Shown here in pieces: positions 1 through 6,781 of a stretch of DNA of 64,000 nucleotides. Below the pieces are notes generated by a model. It searched no databases. It saw only the letters and a list, made by a program, of their open reading frames with translations, and had not been told where the DNA came from. Origin of the DNA: Spirochaetia bacterium (lineage in GTDB: Bacteria > Spirochaetota > Spirochaetia > DSM-27196 > Salinispiraceae). Each line of letters begins with the position of its first letter. Within the stretch, counting starts at the first letter, position 1. The position numbers were made by a program, and so were the translations under genes. The stretch lies in NCBI GenBank assembly GCA_038204425.1, contig JBBRCZ010000005.1, forward strand, positions 64,001 through 128,000, in the 5' to 3' direction.

Positions 1-187
1 CCAGATAGTTGCCTTCAATTGGCCGAGTAAGAAAGTAAATTACGACAAACGAAACTATTTCTAATATCAAAACCAAGGCCACAACAAATGCCGAGCAGTC
101 TCGCCGCAAAAGAAAACTGACGCTCAAAATCACCAAGACTCCCAATAAGGGAAAAAAGGCAACTAGCATCCACAAGGCGTCAAACAT
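1..187 (-). CDS. Probable Mrp/Mnh antiporter subunit D-like membrane protein (N-terminus only; runs off the left edge)
   Basis: Manual translation from ATG at 187 gives MFDALWMLVAFFPLLGVLVILSVSFLLRRDCSAFVVALVLILEIVSFVVIYF... It is hydrophobic, open to the window edge and overlaps the mnhC stop. Subunit identity is inferred from position after mnhC. Confidence 0.6.
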   Translation of the reverse strand, partial: MFDALWMLVAFFPLLGVLVILSVSFLLRRDCSAFVVALVLILEIVSFVVIYFLTRPIEGNYL

Positions 188-503
188 TGCCAAGCTCCGA
201 GACCAAGACAGTCCCTGTCTGACGATAGAGCCTGACTATGACCGCGCATGCCAAGGCATTAAAACACATTCCGATAACAATTGCCGTCAACATGAGGGCT
301 TGCGGTACAGGATCTACAACAACACGCTGGCTAACATTGAGTATGGGAGCTGCGCCACTGGCAACAAATCCAATCTTTAAAAACTCAAGGATTAACATGC
401 TTTCTACTATCGAAAGGCACATTACTTTTTTGATCAAATTGTCCACCACAATCAAGCCCCAAACAGCCACAAACAAAAGCCACAGATCAAGATTCATGTG
501 CAC
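180..503 (-). CDS. mnhC: Na+/H+ antiporter subunit C (MrpC/MnhC)
   Basis: DNLIKKVM and VDPVPQALMLTAIVIG signatures; 3 TM; 107 aa. Confidence 0.92.
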   Translation of the reverse strand: MHMNLDLWLLFVAVWGLIVVDNLIKKVMCLSIVESMLILEFLKIGFVASGAAPILNVSQRVVVDPVPQALMLTAIVIGMCFNALACAVIVRLYRQTGTVLVSELGNV

Positions 504-1213
504 TTCCCAAGATGCTTCATACCCACTACGGTTAAGACTACAACCATTGCTTCCATCATGGTGTCAAAAACCCTTGGTCCTAGATAAACAAGCGTTACCA
601 CATTGTTTATTCCCACATGCTGAGCAAGATCGAGCCAAGCTTGCTTATCAGCTCGAACACTAACCTGGCCTGGACTCAAGAAGTAGACAATGAGCATTAT
701 TGCAAGCAAAAGTAAGCCCAAAACGATGCCGGTAACGCAGCGCTCAATACGACGCCAAGATAAGTTATTTTTTGCCAGAACTATTGGATTAAGTTTCGGG
801 GCTTGATCCCAAAACAAGAAATTTCTAAAAATTAGCACCATCGACCCCGAGACTTCAAGAAAAATCGCCAGAGAAAGAATAGGAAAAACCGCGTTTGACC
901 AAATTAGACCTTCAAGTCTCAACTGATAAAGGCCGCCAAACGGTCTTCCTGCAAAAACAAAACCTGCTATTGCTAGAGCAAACAAGACAACAATTCCGCT
1001 CAGTTCTATCTTTTGAAAAACCATGTCCGAGTACATACGGCGCTCCATAACCAACTCCACCACTACCATAATCGATCCAAGCATAACGCCAGCCTGAAAA
1101 CCACCACCGGGAAACGACGCACCATAGGACGCCACATACAGAGAAAAAACTACCGCAAAGGGAAATATCTTGCCCAAAGTAGTCGTAAAAATTGGCGATT
1201 CTCTCAAGTTCAC
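494..1213 (-). CDS. mnhB: Na+/H+ antiporter subunit B (MnhB domain) with C-terminal MbhE-like segment
   Basis: PGGGFQAG MnhB motif; C-terminal NNVVTLVYLGPRVFDTMME. Start set to GTG 1213, which overlaps the upstream TGA. Confidence 0.85.
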   Translation of the reverse strand: MNLRESPIFTTTLGKIFPFAVVFSLYVASYGASFPGGGFQAGVMLGSIMVVVELVMERRMYSDMVFQKIELSGIVVLFALAIAGFVFAGRPFGGLYQLRLEGLIWSNAVFPILSLAIFLEVSGSMVLIFRNFLFWDQAPKLNPIVLAKNNLSWRRIERCVTGIVLGLLLLAIMLIVYFLSPGQVSVRADKQAWLDLAQHVGINNVVTLVYLGPRVFDTMMEAMVVVLTVVGMKHLGKCT

Positions 1214-1551
1214 AAACTGTCTCCGTTGCTTCCATCGTAGATTTGACAAGGAAGCGTCATTAGACAAGCTTTTTCTGGGTTGGAAAAATCGATGCCTTCT
1301 TTCTGACAAATATGGAGAAATACTTTGATGTCGCGCGCATCGCCGACCGGAATAAACAACGTTCGATTGTAGCTGTACTCTTTCCCAAACAGCGACTTAA
1401 ATGATGCAAACAGGGGCAGTCCTTCGTCGCTAAGGCTTTCTATGCTCTCGCCGTCTAGTACCGAACTATCAAAAAGACCAACTTCCAGGAGGATGGACGA
1501 AATTCTATCAAGCAAACTTTCATCCTTTAAAATAATAATCATTAGCTTCAT
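1210..1551 (-). CDS. PII-like signal transduction protein
   Basis: 113 aa with MKLMIIIL..., LPLFASFKSLF, YNRTLF and C-terminal LMTLP. This pattern recalls PII-like proteins encoded beside cation antiporters in anaerobes. Confidence 0.7.
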   Translation of the reverse strand: MKLMIIILKDESLLDRISSILLEVGLFDSSVLDGESIESLSDEGLPLFASFKSLFGKEYSYNRTLFIPVGDARDIKVFLHICQKEGIDFSNPEKACLMTLPCQIYDGSNGDSL

Positions 1552-1554
1552 GGT

Positions 1555-2040
1555 TTAGGCACTCTCAAAGGCGCTAATATAGTCGATTATGATTTTTGCG
1601 CATTCGTTGCTTTCACCAGCTACAAGCCTATCACGAGCCTCTTGAAAAACTTCTACGGCATCTTCTTGGTTGAGCAAGCGCCCAAGCCGCGCCAAAAGAC
1701 TCAAGTACATTCTACTTTTTGCGTTCGGGAGGATGATACAAAACAGCGCTTGCACCAAATCACCTTTTATCAAATGGATTGCTTTTGGTAAAAGACCCAA
1801 ACTCATTGTGATGTCTGACGCCTCGTCACTGCGAGCATGCACCAGCGCAAAACCCTTGCCAAGATTGATGTCCTGGGGTGCATTGGTGCGGCTTGACGCT
1901 TTGATACTTTGCAAAACATTGAGTTCCAGCTTGGCATTTCCGGCGCACAAACTAACTGCCTGCTTTAGTATTGATTCGTAGCCACTAGCATCCAATAGAA
2001 TAACTCGATCTGGCTTTAAGTAGTCCAAGAGATCAACCAT
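1555..2040 (-). CDS. PTS EIIA domain protein (fructose/mannitol/Ntr type)
   Basis: LGKGFALVHAR matches the G.G.AIPH phospho-His motif; YLSLLARLGRLL C-terminal helix; RBS GGAGG before ATG 2040. Confidence 0.85.
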   Translation of the reverse strand: MVDLLDYLKPDRVILLDASGYESILKQAVSLCAGNAKLELNVLQSIKASSRTNAPQDINLGKGFALVHARSDEASDITMSLGLLPKAIHLIKGDLVQALFCIILPNAKSRMYLSLLARLGRLLNQEDAVEVFQEARDRLVAGESNECAKIIIDYISAFESA

Positions 2041-2344
2041 GGTCCCTCCCCTTATCTTTTTGTGTATCGCCGCTTTTTTTGTCTTGGTCCTTTTCGGCAG
2101 CAGCATGACCATGGGTAAACTTAATTGCCGTCAAAAACACTAGGCTCGACAAGCCAGCACCAAGTGCTGCTTCAGTTATCGCTATGTCTGGAGCTGAGAG
2201 CAAAAGATAACGCACGGTCATTATCATACCAAAGGCACTCAGCCACATTAATGACCGCAACAATTGCTTGCAAGCCAGAACACCACAAATACAAGCGCCC
2301 GTGAATATCGTCATCAGGACATCAAACACTATCATCGTTATCAT
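2033..2344 (-). CDS. Mrp/Mbh subunit, DUF4040 (MbhD-like) domain
   Basis: YLLLSAPDIAITEAALGAGLS signature; position in the mnh operon. Confidence 0.88.
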   Translation of the reverse strand: MITMIVFDVLMTIFTGACICGVLACKQLLRSLMWLSAFGMIMTVRYLLLSAPDIAITEAALGAGLSSLVFLTAIKFTHGHAAAEKDQDKKSGDTQKDKGRDHG

Positions 2345-2633
2345 CTCGCACTCTTTCGTCCATGCGTGAGACTGCCAGGACGTGGGCAACAATCGGAGCG
2401 GTAAAAACCAAAAAAATTACGATCACGACAAACTTCAAAGAAAAGTCAGTCTGCCGTGCGCCAAGGGCCAAACCAATAATGATCGAAATAGAACCCGAAA
2501 CACCGCATTTGGTCGCGGCATGAAACCTTTGAAACAAGTCTGGCAAAATTATGCTGCCGAGACTTCCAAAAAACACAAGAACAAGGCCGCTAATCAGAAA
2601 GAAGCCTTCTAATATTTGCAGTAAAATAGTCAT
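2322..2633 (-). CDS. mnhG: Na+/H+ antiporter subunit G
   Basis: LPDLFQRFHAATKCG and FTAPIVAHVL motifs; ATG 2633 overlaps the mnhF stop. Confidence 0.92.
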   Translation of the reverse strand: MTILLQILEGFFLISGLVLVFFGSLGSIILPDLFQRFHAATKCGVSGSISIIIGLALGARQTDFSLKFVVIVIFLVFTAPIVAHVLAVSRMDERVRDDNDDSV

Positions 2634-2893
2634 TCTTTTACTCGATCTTGCATGAGTTTGCGAATACGTACAAACGCGACAATTTCGCCAAAGGCCAACA
2701 AAGCATAGACCATTGCAATATCGAGGTAATAACTGGCATTTTCGATCACCGCAAGCGTGCATAAGATTAAGACAATACCAGACGACACCAACGACAAAGC
2801 CATTAAACGATCCTGAAAACTCGGCCCCCTCAGCAAGCGAAAACTAGACATCAAAGTTATTAACCCAAGCACAACCAAAAAAAAATGCATCAT
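2630..2893 (-). CDS. mnhF: Na+/H+ antiporter subunit F
   Basis: RLLRGPSFQDRLMAL and YYLDIAMVYALLAF motifs. Confidence 0.92.
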   Translation of the reverse strand: MMHFFLVVLGLITLMSSFRLLRGPSFQDRLMALSLVSSGIVLILCTLAVIENASYYLDIAMVYALLAFGEIVAFVRIRKLMQDRVKE

Positions 2894-2897
2894 TCTG

Positions 2898-3386
2898 CTA
2901 TCCCAAGACCCGCAGAATCACCGACTCAATCGTGTCTTTGATTTGCCGCCCAGCCTCAACACTGTGGCGAGACTTGAGATCAAAACAATGTACATAAAGA
3001 TAACGACCACTTAACCAAAGCGTTATGGTTCCAGGCACCAAGGTGATACTGTTAGCAAGCATTATTCGCCCCATCGGTGACCTAATTCGCGTCTTGATAC
3101 GCACTACTCCTGATTTGTACTTGCCACCTAACATTCGCCAAATCAAAGAAAAACTTGCTTGGTAGTTTTGGACAATCAAGAGAATAAAATAGATAACAAT
3201 CAAGTCAATCCGGTACAATAGACGACCATGCTTAAGCGTGTTACCTTCCCAAAAAATTCGCCAAGAGAATATGCTTACCAATGCACTGAGCACCACACCC
3301 CAAAGTAGGGAAGTCAAGATCAACTCTTGTGAAAACAAGAGCCATGCCAAAAACAATGCGAACCACAAGCTCAAAAAACGCGCCAT
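2898..3386 (-). CDS. mnhE: Na+/H+ antiporter subunit E
   Basis: LANSITLVPGT and LYVH motifs; first gene of the operon. Confidence 0.93.
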   Translation of the reverse strand: MARFLSLWFALFLAWLLFSQELILTSLLWGVVLSALVSIFSWRIFWEGNTLKHGRLLYRIDLIVIYFILLIVQNYQASFSLIWRMLGGKYKSGVVRIKTRIRSPMGRIMLANSITLVPGTITLWLSGRYLYVHCFDLKSRHSVEAGRQIKDTIESVILRVLG

Positions 3387-3474
3387 AGTACCTCGTATTC
3401 TCGATTTTCCGCTGCCTGCAGGCTTATGTCAAGCACAGACCGGTCTTCACCATATATCGGTGTATCACGAAGCA

Positions 3475-3522: not shown

Positions 3523-5025
3523 ATGCCACAAACTAAGCCACAAAAAATTATGGGCAAAACTATTGATTATGCAGTTCGAGACCTCGCACTTGCCGAACTT
3601 GGTCGCAAGGAAATAGAAATCGCCGAGCACGAAATGCCAGGGCTTATTGCCACCAAAGAAAAGTATGGACCCAAAAAGTCCCTGGCTGGCGTAAGAGTTT
3701 CTGGCAGCCTCCACATGACCATCCAGACTGCGGTTTTAGCAGAGACACTTGCCGCCCTAGGCGCCAATGTGAGGTGGGCCAGTTGCAATATTTTTAGCAC
3801 CCAAGATCAAGCCGCTAGTGCCATTGCTGTAGGACGACCAGAATCGGGCGGCAGTATCGCCCAACCAAAAGGCATTCCAGTCTTTGCTTGGAAGGGCGAA
3901 AGCTTAGAAGAATATTGGGACTGTACACTCGACGCCCTAACCTTTCCTTCCAAAGATGGCAGTTTTGCACCCGGCAAGACGCTCGGACCAGAGCTGGTAG
4001 TAGACGACGGCGGTGACGCTACTTTGCTCATCCACAAGGGATACGAGCTTGAGAATGGATCTGGCTGGGTCAACGAAGCCTCCGATCGCCACGAAATTGC
4101 GGTCATTAAAGCACTATTAAAACGAAAGCTTGCCGAAGACAAAACCTTTTGGCATCGCGTAGTTGCCGATTGGAAGGGAGTGTCCGAGGAGACTACCACA
4201 GGCGTAAAGCGCCTTTACAAAATGGCAGCAGAAGGCACTCTCTTAGTGCCAGCAATCAACGTAAACGACTCAGTCACCAAGTCCAAATTTGACAACCTCT
4301 ACGGATGCAGAGAGTCCTTAATTGACGGCATCAAACGCGCCACCGACGTCATGCTCTCCGGCAAAGTAGCAGTAGTTTGCGGTTATGGTGATGTTGGAAA
4401 AGGTTGTGCCCAAAGTTTAAGAGGACAAGGTTGCCGCGTGGTCGTAACCGAAATCGACCCCATTTGTGCACTGCAAGCCGCCATGGAAGGCTACCAAGTT
4501 TTAACCATTGAAGACACGCTCGGCTGGGCCGACATCTATGTAACTACCACCGGCAACTGCGATATCATTACGCTCGACCATCTACGTAAAGTCAAAAACC
4601 AAGCAATAGTCTGTAATATTGGCCACTTTGATGATGAGATTCAGGTCGACAAACTCAACAAGGCCAGCGACATCAAACGTGTCAATATTAAACCTCAGAC
4701 CGACAAGTACACCCTGCCAAACGGCAACGAGTTCTATCTGCTGGCTGAAGGTCGCTTAGTCAATCTTGGCTGCGCCACCGGGCACCCAAGCTTTGTAATG
4801 TCCAACAGCTTTACTAACCAAACCTTAGCCCAGATTAAGCTCTGGACCGAACGCGCAAGCCTAAAACCTGGCGTCCAAACCCTACCCAAAGACCTTGACG
4901 AAGAAGTAGCTAGATTGCACTTGGCAAAAGTCGGCGTCAAGCTCACCACCCTGAGCAAGGCCCAGGCCGACTACCTCGGCATCCCCGTACAAGGCCCCTA
5001 CAAACCAGATAGTTATCGTTATTGA
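3523..5025 (+). CDS. ahcY: S-adenosyl-L-homocysteine hydrolase
   Basis: [44 protein letters not shown] and GHPSFVMS motifs. Confidence 0.98.
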
Positions 5026-5179: not shown

Positions 5180-6781
5180 ATGTCTGTGGATAAAGAGACT
5201 GGGATAGAACCCCAAGTAGAACTTGACAGACTGACAAAAGCTCTAAAAGACCGAACGACGCACCTAGACAACCTGCCTTACTTGGTTTACTCGGTAGCGG
5301 TGGAGACAGAAAGAGGCGGCAAACTACGCTTTCCGTTTGTATATGTTAACCTTGCCCATGTTGCCACCGTCGGGGCAGACAAACAAGCTGATCTTATCGG
5401 CAAGACGGACTTTTCAATCTTCAAAAAATCCTCAGCCAGTAAGGCTTATCTTGACTATTGTTATGTGGTGACCCACGGCCAAGCTGTCGAAAAAGAAGAA
5501 ACACTCGCAGACCAAAACGGCAAACAGCATGTCTTTCAAGTAAGCAAAAAGCCTGTTTTGGACGACCAGGGCAAAGTAACGCGTATTGACGGGGTTTCTA
5601 TTGATATCACCCACGAAAAAGAACTTGAGGCCGAACTCGTCTACCACCAAGCCTTGACCAGCGCCGCCTACCTCAACAGCCCTGATGGCATTGTTCAAAT
5701 TGACTACGAGACCGGCGACATAATTTTGGCAAACAAGCGTTTTCATATAATGAACGAATATTGTGTCGAGCTCAAAGGCGTCAAGCTCAGCCGAAAAGCT
5801 TCTCAATTTTTGATGGGTTCACAGGGCATGGATTGCAGCAAAACGGGAGAATACTCCAGAGTTTTTTTGACGCCCTTAGCCACAAGAGTGGAACTCGATG
5901 GTTTGCTCTCCTACGTAAAAGACGAGGAAAAGCCTCTCTTTGTCTATGCCTTTGATTTGGTTCAACACGATGACTACCGATTGATTGGCAATCCAATCTC
6001 AGTTATCAATTTGCACAATGCCAATCTAAGTGACAGGAAGAAGTACTTGAGGCAGCTTGAGGACGGACCGCTCTGCTCGGATATTCAACACATTACTAGA
6101 ACCAAACAAATTATCTTAGTGCGGTCCAATCACCATATTGTAAATTTGCGCGCTAAGAAGATTGTCATCGGCAATGACCGCGATATCACCCAACAAGAGC
6201 ATGACCGTGATATGTTAGAACGCAAGACTCGCGAACTCGCTGAGGCCAATAAAAAACTGGAACAATTGGCATTGCAGCACCCCGTTTCGGGCCTGCCAAA
6301 CAGGCGTTTGTTGGAAATTAATGCCTGCAATGCACTCAATGGTGCCAAACGTTCACGGGACTCGGCGGTCTACGTAGGGTTGATCTTTATGGACATGGAG
6401 CATTTTAAAGAGGTAAACGACAACCACGGCCACGAGGCTGGCGATATAGTGCTCAAAGAAATTGGGCGCCGTTTACAATCTGTCATCAAACGTAAAACTG
6501 ATACCGTGGCGCACCTAGGCGGTGACGAATTTTCCATTCTCTTGCCCGACTTAAAAAACCCCGCACTCTTGCTTAGTCTTGTAAACGAAATCCGGAACAC
6601 AATAGAAAAAACACCCTATGACATTGGGGGCAAGACCGTTCGTCTGGGCGTTAGCATTGGCACTAGCGCCTTCACCGTTGATGGCGAACATCCTCATTCT
6701 TTAGAGCGCTTTAGAGAGCTCTTAAACATCGCCGACCAACGAATGTATACTGACAAACAGACTCGGCGAGTTTCTGAGTAA
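5180..6781 (+). CDS. PAS-domain diguanylate cyclase
   Basis: PAS/PAC motifs (LIGKTDF, SKKPVLDDQG, DIT); SGLPNRR; FKEVNDNHGHEAGD; RKTD I-site five residues before GGDEF. Confidence 0.93.
   Translation: MSVDKETGIEPQVELDRLTKALKDRTTHLDNLPYLVYSVAVETERGGKLRFPFVYVNLAHVATVGADKQADLIGKTDFSIFKKSSASKAYLDYCYVVTHGQAVEKEETLADQNGKQHVFQVSKKPVLDDQGKVTRIDGVSIDITHEKELEAELVYHQALTSAAYLNSPDGIVQIDYETGDIILANKRFHIMNEYCVELKGVKLSRKASQFLMGSQGMDCSKTGEYSRVFLTPLATRVELDGLLSYVKDEEKPLFVYAFDLVQHDDYRLIGNPISVINLHNANLSDRKKYLRQLEDGPLCSDIQHITRTKQIILVRSNHHIVNLRAKKIVIGNDRDITQQEHDRDMLERKTRELAEANKKLEQLALQHPVSGLPNRRLLEINACNALNGAKRSRDSAVYVGLIFMDMEHFKEVNDNHGHEAGDIVLKEIGRRLQSVIKRKTDTVAHLGGDEFSILLPDLKNPALLLSLVNEIRNTIEKTPYDIGGKTVRLGVSIGTSAFTVDGEHPHSLERFRELLNIADQRMYTDKQTRRVSE

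Follow-up and report, generated by a model that had tools for sequence, protein, structure and literature searches.

Why should an operon for an Mrp-type cation/proton antiporter carry, between the genes of its membrane subunits, two genes for soluble proteins? This question is raised by a 64,000-nt stretch of contig JBBRCZ010000005.1 from a Spirochaetia bacterium of the Salinispiraceae (positions 64,001 to 128,000 of the forward strand; this whole stretch is hereafter called the window), positions 1–3386 of which hold an mnh operon with every gene on the minus strand. Descriptions of Mrp complexes present them as entirely membrane-bound (PMC5703873). The present operon additionally encodes an enzyme IIA (EIIA) of the phosphoenolpyruvate-dependent phosphotransferase system (PTS) type and a 113-aa PII-like protein. 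We assign a probability of roughly one half to the interpretation that both act as accessory proteins which regulate a stand-alone group 3 Mrp complex from its cytoplasmic side; the gene content is observed, each step of the mechanism beyond it is inferred.

The open reading frames (ORFs) of the window and their Pfam matches reproduced exactly the gene order given by the initial annotation, mnhE-mnhF-mnhG-DUF4040-EIIA-PII-like-mnhB-mnhC-mnhD. The tight spacing around the two soluble genes was likewise as claimed: the EIIA gene (1555..2040, minus strand; 161 aa, PF00359 E 1.3e-12) overlaps the DUF4040 gene by 8 nt (2033–2040), a 3-nt gap (1552–1554) separates it from the gene of the 113-aa protein (1210..1551, minus strand), and the latter shares a GTGA overlap (1210–1213) with mnhB. 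An assembly frameshift that splits a fusion of EIIA with the DUF4040 protein, i.e. MbhD, is out, since the EIIA gene carries its own purine-rich ribosome-binding-like stretch and the contigs of three sequencing runs, from two of which this DNA may derive, showed neither a substitution nor an indel over positions 1100–2500.

Is the arrangement a peculiarity of one genome? The PII-like family was found in 27 of 41 relatives, in 43 of 301 phylum genomes and in 91 of 99 order genomes. Forty loci, hand-picked from 78 non-self matches among the relatives and phylum genomes, were extended. Twenty-five lay beside at least three Mnh subunits; EIIA accompanied 23 of these, and of the two loci without it one is truncated where its contig stops. 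Ten lay beside a PF00999 exchanger of the cation/proton antiporter (CPA) type, always with EIIA and in eight cases with EIIA fused to the PII-like protein, and the remaining five were located elsewhere. A scan of genome contigs yielded 430 relatives, and the best 80 loci, from a ranking that favours query-like sequences, comprised 50 Mnh-linked loci (at least three subunits; 47 with EIIA), five CPA-linked loci (all with EIIA) and 25 others (15 with EIIA). The Mnh-linked records belong to Spirochaetota (37), Moduliflexota (3), Aerophobota (2), Bacillota (1) and Myxococcota (1), with seven unassigned. Samples from two further phyla and one order were inspected with flanks of 1.5 kb; the neighbours there included EIIA at 24/28, 7/16 and 3/3 loci, a CPA exchanger at 14, 4 and 3, and Mnh at 1, 1 and 0.

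Two operon layouts recur. The commoner one, hereafter the sister type, occurs in several phyla and reads PII-EIIA-E-F-G-MbhD-MbhE-B-C-D, with the pair heading the operon. The order of the window, E-F-G-MbhD-EIIA-PII-B-MbhE-C-D, is the embedded type, which we found in 11 genomes (10 of the 99 of the order, plus G123) with at least six family codes and on four metagenome contigs; one false locus (L098) was excluded. EIIA lies inside the embedded operon in 8 of the 11 genomes and on all four metagenome contigs. Thus, neither of the two outcomes that would contradict the proposal and are open to computation, confinement to a single genome and a fold other than PII, was observed. The PII-EIIA pair has outlasted a rearrangement of the operon and also occurs next to an unrelated CPA exchanger. 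One genome (G341) holds an embedded and a leading arrangement together (L209 and L215), which suggests different roles for the two, and at a further locus (L213, G381:C368) a remodelled pair of the embedded type adjoins a CPA exchanger and not Mnh.

Searched as a single sequence, the 113-aa protein had no match in Pfam, NCBIfam or the PDB. A profile search recovered 278 relatives at the 50% identity cluster level, and 67 of 148 aligned family members matched PF00543 at E ≤ 0.01, while the family profile matched PII structures with a best E of 4.5e-5. An AlphaFold model (predicted local distance difference test, pLDDT, 85) led Foldseek to PII/GlnK/SbtB-type structures throughout the best 50 matches listed, at a structural identity of 10–17%. 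The top four VIA-align hits were likewise all PII-like (CPII, TM0021, DUF3240 and SbtB; Z 9.0–9.2, root-mean-square deviation 2.2–3.2, 79–87 residues aligned). The ESM Atlas returned three unnamed clusters (0.90–0.95) and a P-II cluster at 0.89, which we regard as a lead only. By profile and model alike, the protein thus has the PII ferredoxin-like fold with a T-loop and represents an unnamed family, and its initial description as PII-like is borne out. Two relatives differ in architecture: P0128 joins a PII-like domain to a C-terminal ferredoxin-like, Cys-rich part and may be a chimera, and at L093 the PII-like protein is doubled and more distant, its neighbours being a DUF1538 transporter and a CNNM protein.

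What could such a protein sense? Aligned by profile to PII, it carries the residues D, S, E and A at four glycines, which we take to be the nucleotide-pocket glycines of canonical PII. G28 is replaced by Asp and G38 by Glu in 10 of 11 PII-like proteins of the embedded type each, and the window protein additionally has S36 and A95. Other canonical marks are also absent: Y61 stands at the site of Lys58, A95-C96 at the B-loop GDGK and S36/E38 at the T-loop GxG, and there is no counterpart of Lys58, of the B-loop lysine (Lys90) or of the C-loop arginine; Lys90, the B-loop and the C-loop arginine presumably all serve the PII pocket. D33 and K/R63 line up with the conserved PII acid/base pair, which we assume to be a mark of the homotrimer. 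Lys58 is a 2-oxoglutarate ligand of PII (PMC6908673). With the pocket glycines and the equivalents of Lys58, Lys90 and the C-loop arginine gone, the earlier idea that the protein reports adenylate or cyclic-nucleotide status finds little support; the PII-like protein of the embedded clade is probably an adaptor, or else responds to a signal that is none of ATP, ADP and c-di-AMP. Elsewhere, the genome encodes two canonical PII proteins and two diadenylate cyclase domains.

The second soluble protein is of PtsN fold. Its model reached a pLDDT of 93.7, the six best Foldseek matches were EIIA-Ntr structures, and both the PF00359 (Fru/Mtl/Ntr) fold and the phospho-acceptor histidine are present. 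The statement that EIIA keeps its phospho-histidine therefore holds for the ALVHAR motif with His68, but the remainder of the site is remodelled. The histidine is invariant in 119/119 aligned EIIA rows, including 18/18 of the embedded type (11 loci and 7 proteins, partly redundant). Within these 18 rows, the arginine of the RE motif is retained once (64/67 in the sister type), the proline before the histidine never (67/67), and the second histidine is always tyrosine (His in 67/67). We presume that these three residues have catalytic roles. EIIA does not qualify as PtsN proper either: it scored 19.9 bits against TIGR01419 (cut-off 138.7), and both the RE..STG.G..AIPH signature and the second histidine of solved PtsN chains are absent. 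Matches to PPR models were repeat artefacts, no single stretch of which was significant.

Genes for enzyme I (EI) and HPr are present, and the genome (95.6% complete) holds no EIIC of family PF02378, the only EIIC family searched. All four further EIIA_2 domains sit on non-PTS proteins, read from sequence as two CPA-like, one SulP-like and one CBS-like protein. They are located at G000:C12:88051-90135, C5:47819-50308, C2:250042-252144 and C6:87144-88082, and a SulP-STAS-like transporter is among them. The PTS of this genome looks purely regulatory. Because the EIIA site is remodelled, phosphorylation of His68 appears plausible but unsure.

The membrane part comprises a complete group 3 set, every gene on the minus strand: MnhE/MbhA (2898..3386; PF01899 E 1.3e-29), MnhF/MbhB (2630..2893; PF04066), MnhG/MbhC (2322..2633; PF03334, TIGR01300 above cut-off), MbhD (2033..2344; PF13244, with an APDIAITE motif and a charged C-terminal tail), MnhB, which is MbhF-like and fused to an MbhE-like part (494..1213; PF04039), MnhC/MbhG (180..503; PF00420) and the 5' end of MrpD/MbhH (1..193; 508 aa, extending past the window at L001 16667-18193). 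MnhB and MbhE form one ORF here, in the reversed B-then-E order, and two genes in the same order in relatives. No protein of the genome other than MrpD matches PF00361, so there is neither an MrpA nor a hydrogenase arm, and by its gene content the operon is of the stand-alone group 3 Mrp (CPA3) type. A membrane-bound hydrogenase operon (Mbh/Mbx) was ruled out by this sole PF00361 protein and by the gene that follows mnhD, which encodes an AI-2E transporter.

Does this complex still work as an ordinary antiporter? Among MrpD sequences of at least 480 aa, the lysine of transmembrane helix (TM) 8 is replaced by phenylalanine in 10/10 of the embedded type, compared with lysine in 60/60 of the sister type; Phe244 of the window protein aligns with the lysine of the three solved subunits MbsH, MbhH and MrpD. 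This lysine is the central link between the half-channels and the only protonatable residue of TM8 (PMC7419157), and the available mutant table of that study (supplement 1, part 2) has no entry for it (K250/K251). GluTM5, LysTM7 (K213) and LysTM12 (K375) are kept in 10/10 sequences of the embedded type. The TM2 aspartate of MrpF (D35/D38) is absent from both types, being Ser in the window, S/N/T across the embedded type and Asn in the sister-type consensus. Substitution D38A/N lowers activity to 1–4% in E. coli KNabc, and D38N retained activity in B. subtilis itself (PMC7419157, supplement 1, part 2). The D/T/E motif of MbhD, the N/D/T/E motif of MbhE and the GGGF motif of MnhB are kept. By our own motif reading, APD.AxTE of MbhD would correspond to Asp678/Thr682/Glu687 of B. 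pseudofirmus MrpA, where these residues, located in the MbhD-like part, make up the site of Na+ loading and the exit tunnel, Glu687 being the first Na+-loading site and Asp678 lining the periplasmic exit (PMC9568556). As MrpA and the TM8 lysine are both missing, exchange is likely to be weak, electroneutral or unusually coupled. As a separate observation, sister-type MrpD (L106, L164 and others) has Arg for Lys in TM7 in 54/60 sequences, and sister-type MrpG has Gln for a conserved His.

MrpD, EIIA and the PII-like protein diverged together in the embedded clade, as judged by comparison with the sister type (67 paired PII-EIIA loci aligned), which retains the canonical EIIA site, the DSEGMG motif of the PII-like protein and the TM8 lysine of MrpD. 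The charges of the loops likewise moved in opposite and, by sequence, complementary directions: the mean charge of PII-like residues 33–44 is −3.4 in the embedded and −2.0 in the sister type, that of the EIIA His-loop +2.9 and −0.9. The embedded-type PII and EIIA sequences each form one side of a branch (FastTree support 81 and 73), and the sets including L213 (12 rows) reach 99 and 98.

Gene fusions add a further line of evidence. EIIA-PII fusions (P0045, P0133 and P0156, plus eight CPA-linked loci) connect one soluble protein with the other, and in-frame MbhD-EIIA fusions (P0169–P0172 and P0175) make up four of the 13 matches of the window EIIA, at 37–38% identity, plus a fifth member of the cluster. 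These MbhD-EIIA proteins come from four source collections, are 71–76% identical to each other and have a variable linker with a frame-keeping 2-aa indel. Both kinds of fusion suggest a physical link of EIIA with the PII-like protein and with MbhD. Given the positions of Glu687 and Asp678 in B. pseudofirmus MrpA, the MbhD helix should end in the cytoplasm, and a fused EIIA would hang below the Na+ entry. The converse search with MbhD for longer proteins was insensitive: it recovered a single MbhD-MbhE-MnhB fusion and none of the EIIA fusions already known.

We therefore consider the following mechanism, suggested by these fusions and by known regulators of transport. EIIA would dock where MbhD ends in the cytoplasm, as relatives carry it fused there; MbhD is the subunit with the Na+-loading glutamate in its last helix. 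HPr would phosphorylate His68, and unphosphorylated EIIA would block ion exchange, in the way that PtsN acts on YcgO. The predicted PII-like trimer would bind via its acidic T-loop to the now basic His68 loop, or to membrane subunits, and gate the switch. The initial annotation had proposed dedicated regulators that link the antiporter to PTS phosphorylation and nucleotide status. Conservation, the PII fold, the association with cation/proton exchangers, the presence of EI and HPr and the fusions lend partial support to the former half; the adenylate or cyclic-nucleotide half is at best weakly supported.

Several observations count against this regulator model. Loss of the arginine, the proline and the second histidine may mean that EIIA is no longer phosphorylated, and ordinary antiport is unsure for a complex whose MrpD lacks the TM8 lysine. 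EIIA is missing from three of the 11 embedded operons: G021 has a 42%-identical copy elsewhere in its genome, and G370 and G372 (89% and 92% complete) yielded no close copy with the one query used. Since the acidic PII loop persists in the EIIA-less operons of the latter two, the charge match is not EIIA-specific. The charge shift is, moreover, one evolutionary event and not many, and tree distances of PII and EIIA correlate only weakly within the clade (rho 0.26, n = 11). The MbhD-EIIA fusion belongs to one narrow clade, was not found among 400 phylum genomes, keeps the internal Met, has an unseen genomic context and may be a tolerated stop loss. Of the best 80 loci, the 25 classed as others have neither Mnh nor CPA nearby, some being cut by contig ends, and at five loci of another phylum (L250, L252–L255) the PII-like gene immediately precedes a gene for a VKOR-DsbA fusion, and EIIA is absent. 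Lastly, the 99 order genomes gave 205 MrpF matches and about 65 Mnh-type PII matches (54 top-tier rows and 10 embedded genomes; adjacency was not checked per row), so that most Mrp clusters of the order probably lack the pair.

Could the embedded membrane part have ceased to be a normal antiporter, having become a channel, uniporter or ion sensor, with EIIA and the PII-like protein serving as phosphorylation-independent structural subunits or signalling from the membrane towards the PTS and not the other way round? The exchange of the TM8 lysine throughout the embedded type, the single PF00361 protein without MrpA, an MrpF that lacks an aspartate needed in KNabc and the remodelled EIIA site all point that way, as do weak Foldseek matches of the EIIA fold to the cytoplasmic domains of SLC4 anion exchangers. 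We nevertheless judge it rather unlikely, given that GluTM5, LysTM7 and LysTM12 and the motifs of MbhD, MbhE and MnhB are intact, that His68 is invariant in a genome with EI and HPr, and that the D38N variant of MrpF was still active in B. subtilis. A merely co-transcribed, general signalling pair with other targets, such as the CPA-EIIA or SulP-EIIA transporters of this genome, would in turn explain why other lineages have EIIA-PII pairs without a nearby exchanger, why EIIA can leave the operon (G021) and why most Mrp clusters do without the pair. It would hardly explain the MbhD-EIIA fusions, the persistence of the pair when the operon is rearranged and its presence next to exchangers of two unrelated families, or the divergence of MrpD, EIIA and PII in the same clade, and we regard it as quite unlikely. 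Highly improbable, finally, is an orphan sugar-PTS component with the PII-like gene as a chance neighbour: the best NCBIfam scores of EIIA were indeed to mannitol/fructose IIA models, yet all far under cut-off, the nearest folds are EIIA-Ntr, no PF02378 EIIC was found in the genome, and synteny and fusions are conserved.

A more far-reaching reading can be sketched tentatively, although we would not bet on it: a PTS-coupled cation valve or sensor, in which a lineage of complex-I-related Mrp modules without the central proton-relay lysine gained two soluble subunits, an EIIA, in some cases covalently joined to MbhD, and a trimer of PII fold, their contact loops remodelled in concert. If true, no other Mrp would be known to possess a gate or signalling output of its own in the cytoplasm, and the lineage would offer a natural experiment on the role of LysTM8.

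How does the system compare with known ones? The stand-alone group 3 Mrp of Pyrococcus furiosus, mrpEFGBB'CD, has the same module set within an E-F-G...C-D frame, a single MrpD, no MrpA and no hydrogenase, and its account mentions no soluble subunits in the available text (PMC8415708). In contrast to it, the present operon has two soluble genes inserted, MbhD separate, MbhE after or fused behind MnhB and the TM8 lysine replaced. Unphosphorylated PtsN inhibits the K+/H+ antiporter YcgO in E. coli (PMC11808508), and we propose a similar action here, of an EIIA-Ntr fold on a cation/proton exchanger according to phosphorylation state. YcgO, however, is a single-gene CPA1 protein with CorC/RCK, ptsN is not reported there as operon-embedded and has no PII-like partner, and the phospho-site is non-canonical in our case. 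SbtB-SbtA and GlnK-AmtB (PMC10710835; bioRxiv 2023.08.10.552651) resemble the locus in that a PII-fold protein is encoded with a transporter, but here the PII-like family is another one, the pocket is degenerate, an EIIA is the partner, and the target is multisubunit and non-trimeric. With the nucleotide-sensing SbtB, DarA and CPII, the 113-aa protein shares the fold and, by alignment, not the intact pocket. The sister arrangement uses the same gene families, with the pair leading the operon, a canonical EIIA site, DSEGMG, the TM8 lysine and mostly Arg at TM7 (54/60).

Group 3 Mrp, EIIA control of a cation/proton antiporter and PII gating of transporters are thus known singly, and their combination was not found in print. 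Our literature searches, which mostly did not cover subscription journals and may have missed a passing mention, found no published description of EIIA and PII within an Mrp operon. The available text of an Mrp review mentions no PTS, PII or accessory proteins (PMC5703873), and term searches of the available text of a transporter-regulation review and a PII valve preprint did not find the combination. New here are the in-frame MbhD-EIIA fusions and the three-part remodelling of MrpD, EIIA and the PII-like protein in the embedded clade. A soluble Mrp switch would reveal a way in which anaerobes whose PTS is sugar-less couple Na+/pH balance to phosphoenolpyruvate status, and a widespread PII-like family, so far uncharacterised, would gain a function. 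The natural exchange of Lys for Phe, in a complex that has no MrpA, is of direct relevance to proton coupling in Mrp, membrane-bound hydrogenase and complex I, and to the drive of stand-alone group 3 Mrp.

A sigma-70-like promoter match, TTGACA-17-GAAAAT, lies upstream of mnhE (3404..3432, minus strand; 10/12 consensus positions); the search found two sites against 0.3 expected in shuffles, a consensus match only. The operon ends after mnhD, the next gene beyond, for the AI-2E transporter, being on the opposite strand. Within the window, a divergent adenosylhomocysteinase with an insertion (3523–5025) and then a PAS-GGDEF diguanylate cyclase (5180–6781) are encoded, neither of which is conserved beside the operons of relatives. 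Just outside the window (L001:5342-8080), a 912-aa ammonium transporter is fused to a CheA-like HATPase tail and adjoins CheY/CheX-like and adenylate-cyclase-like genes.

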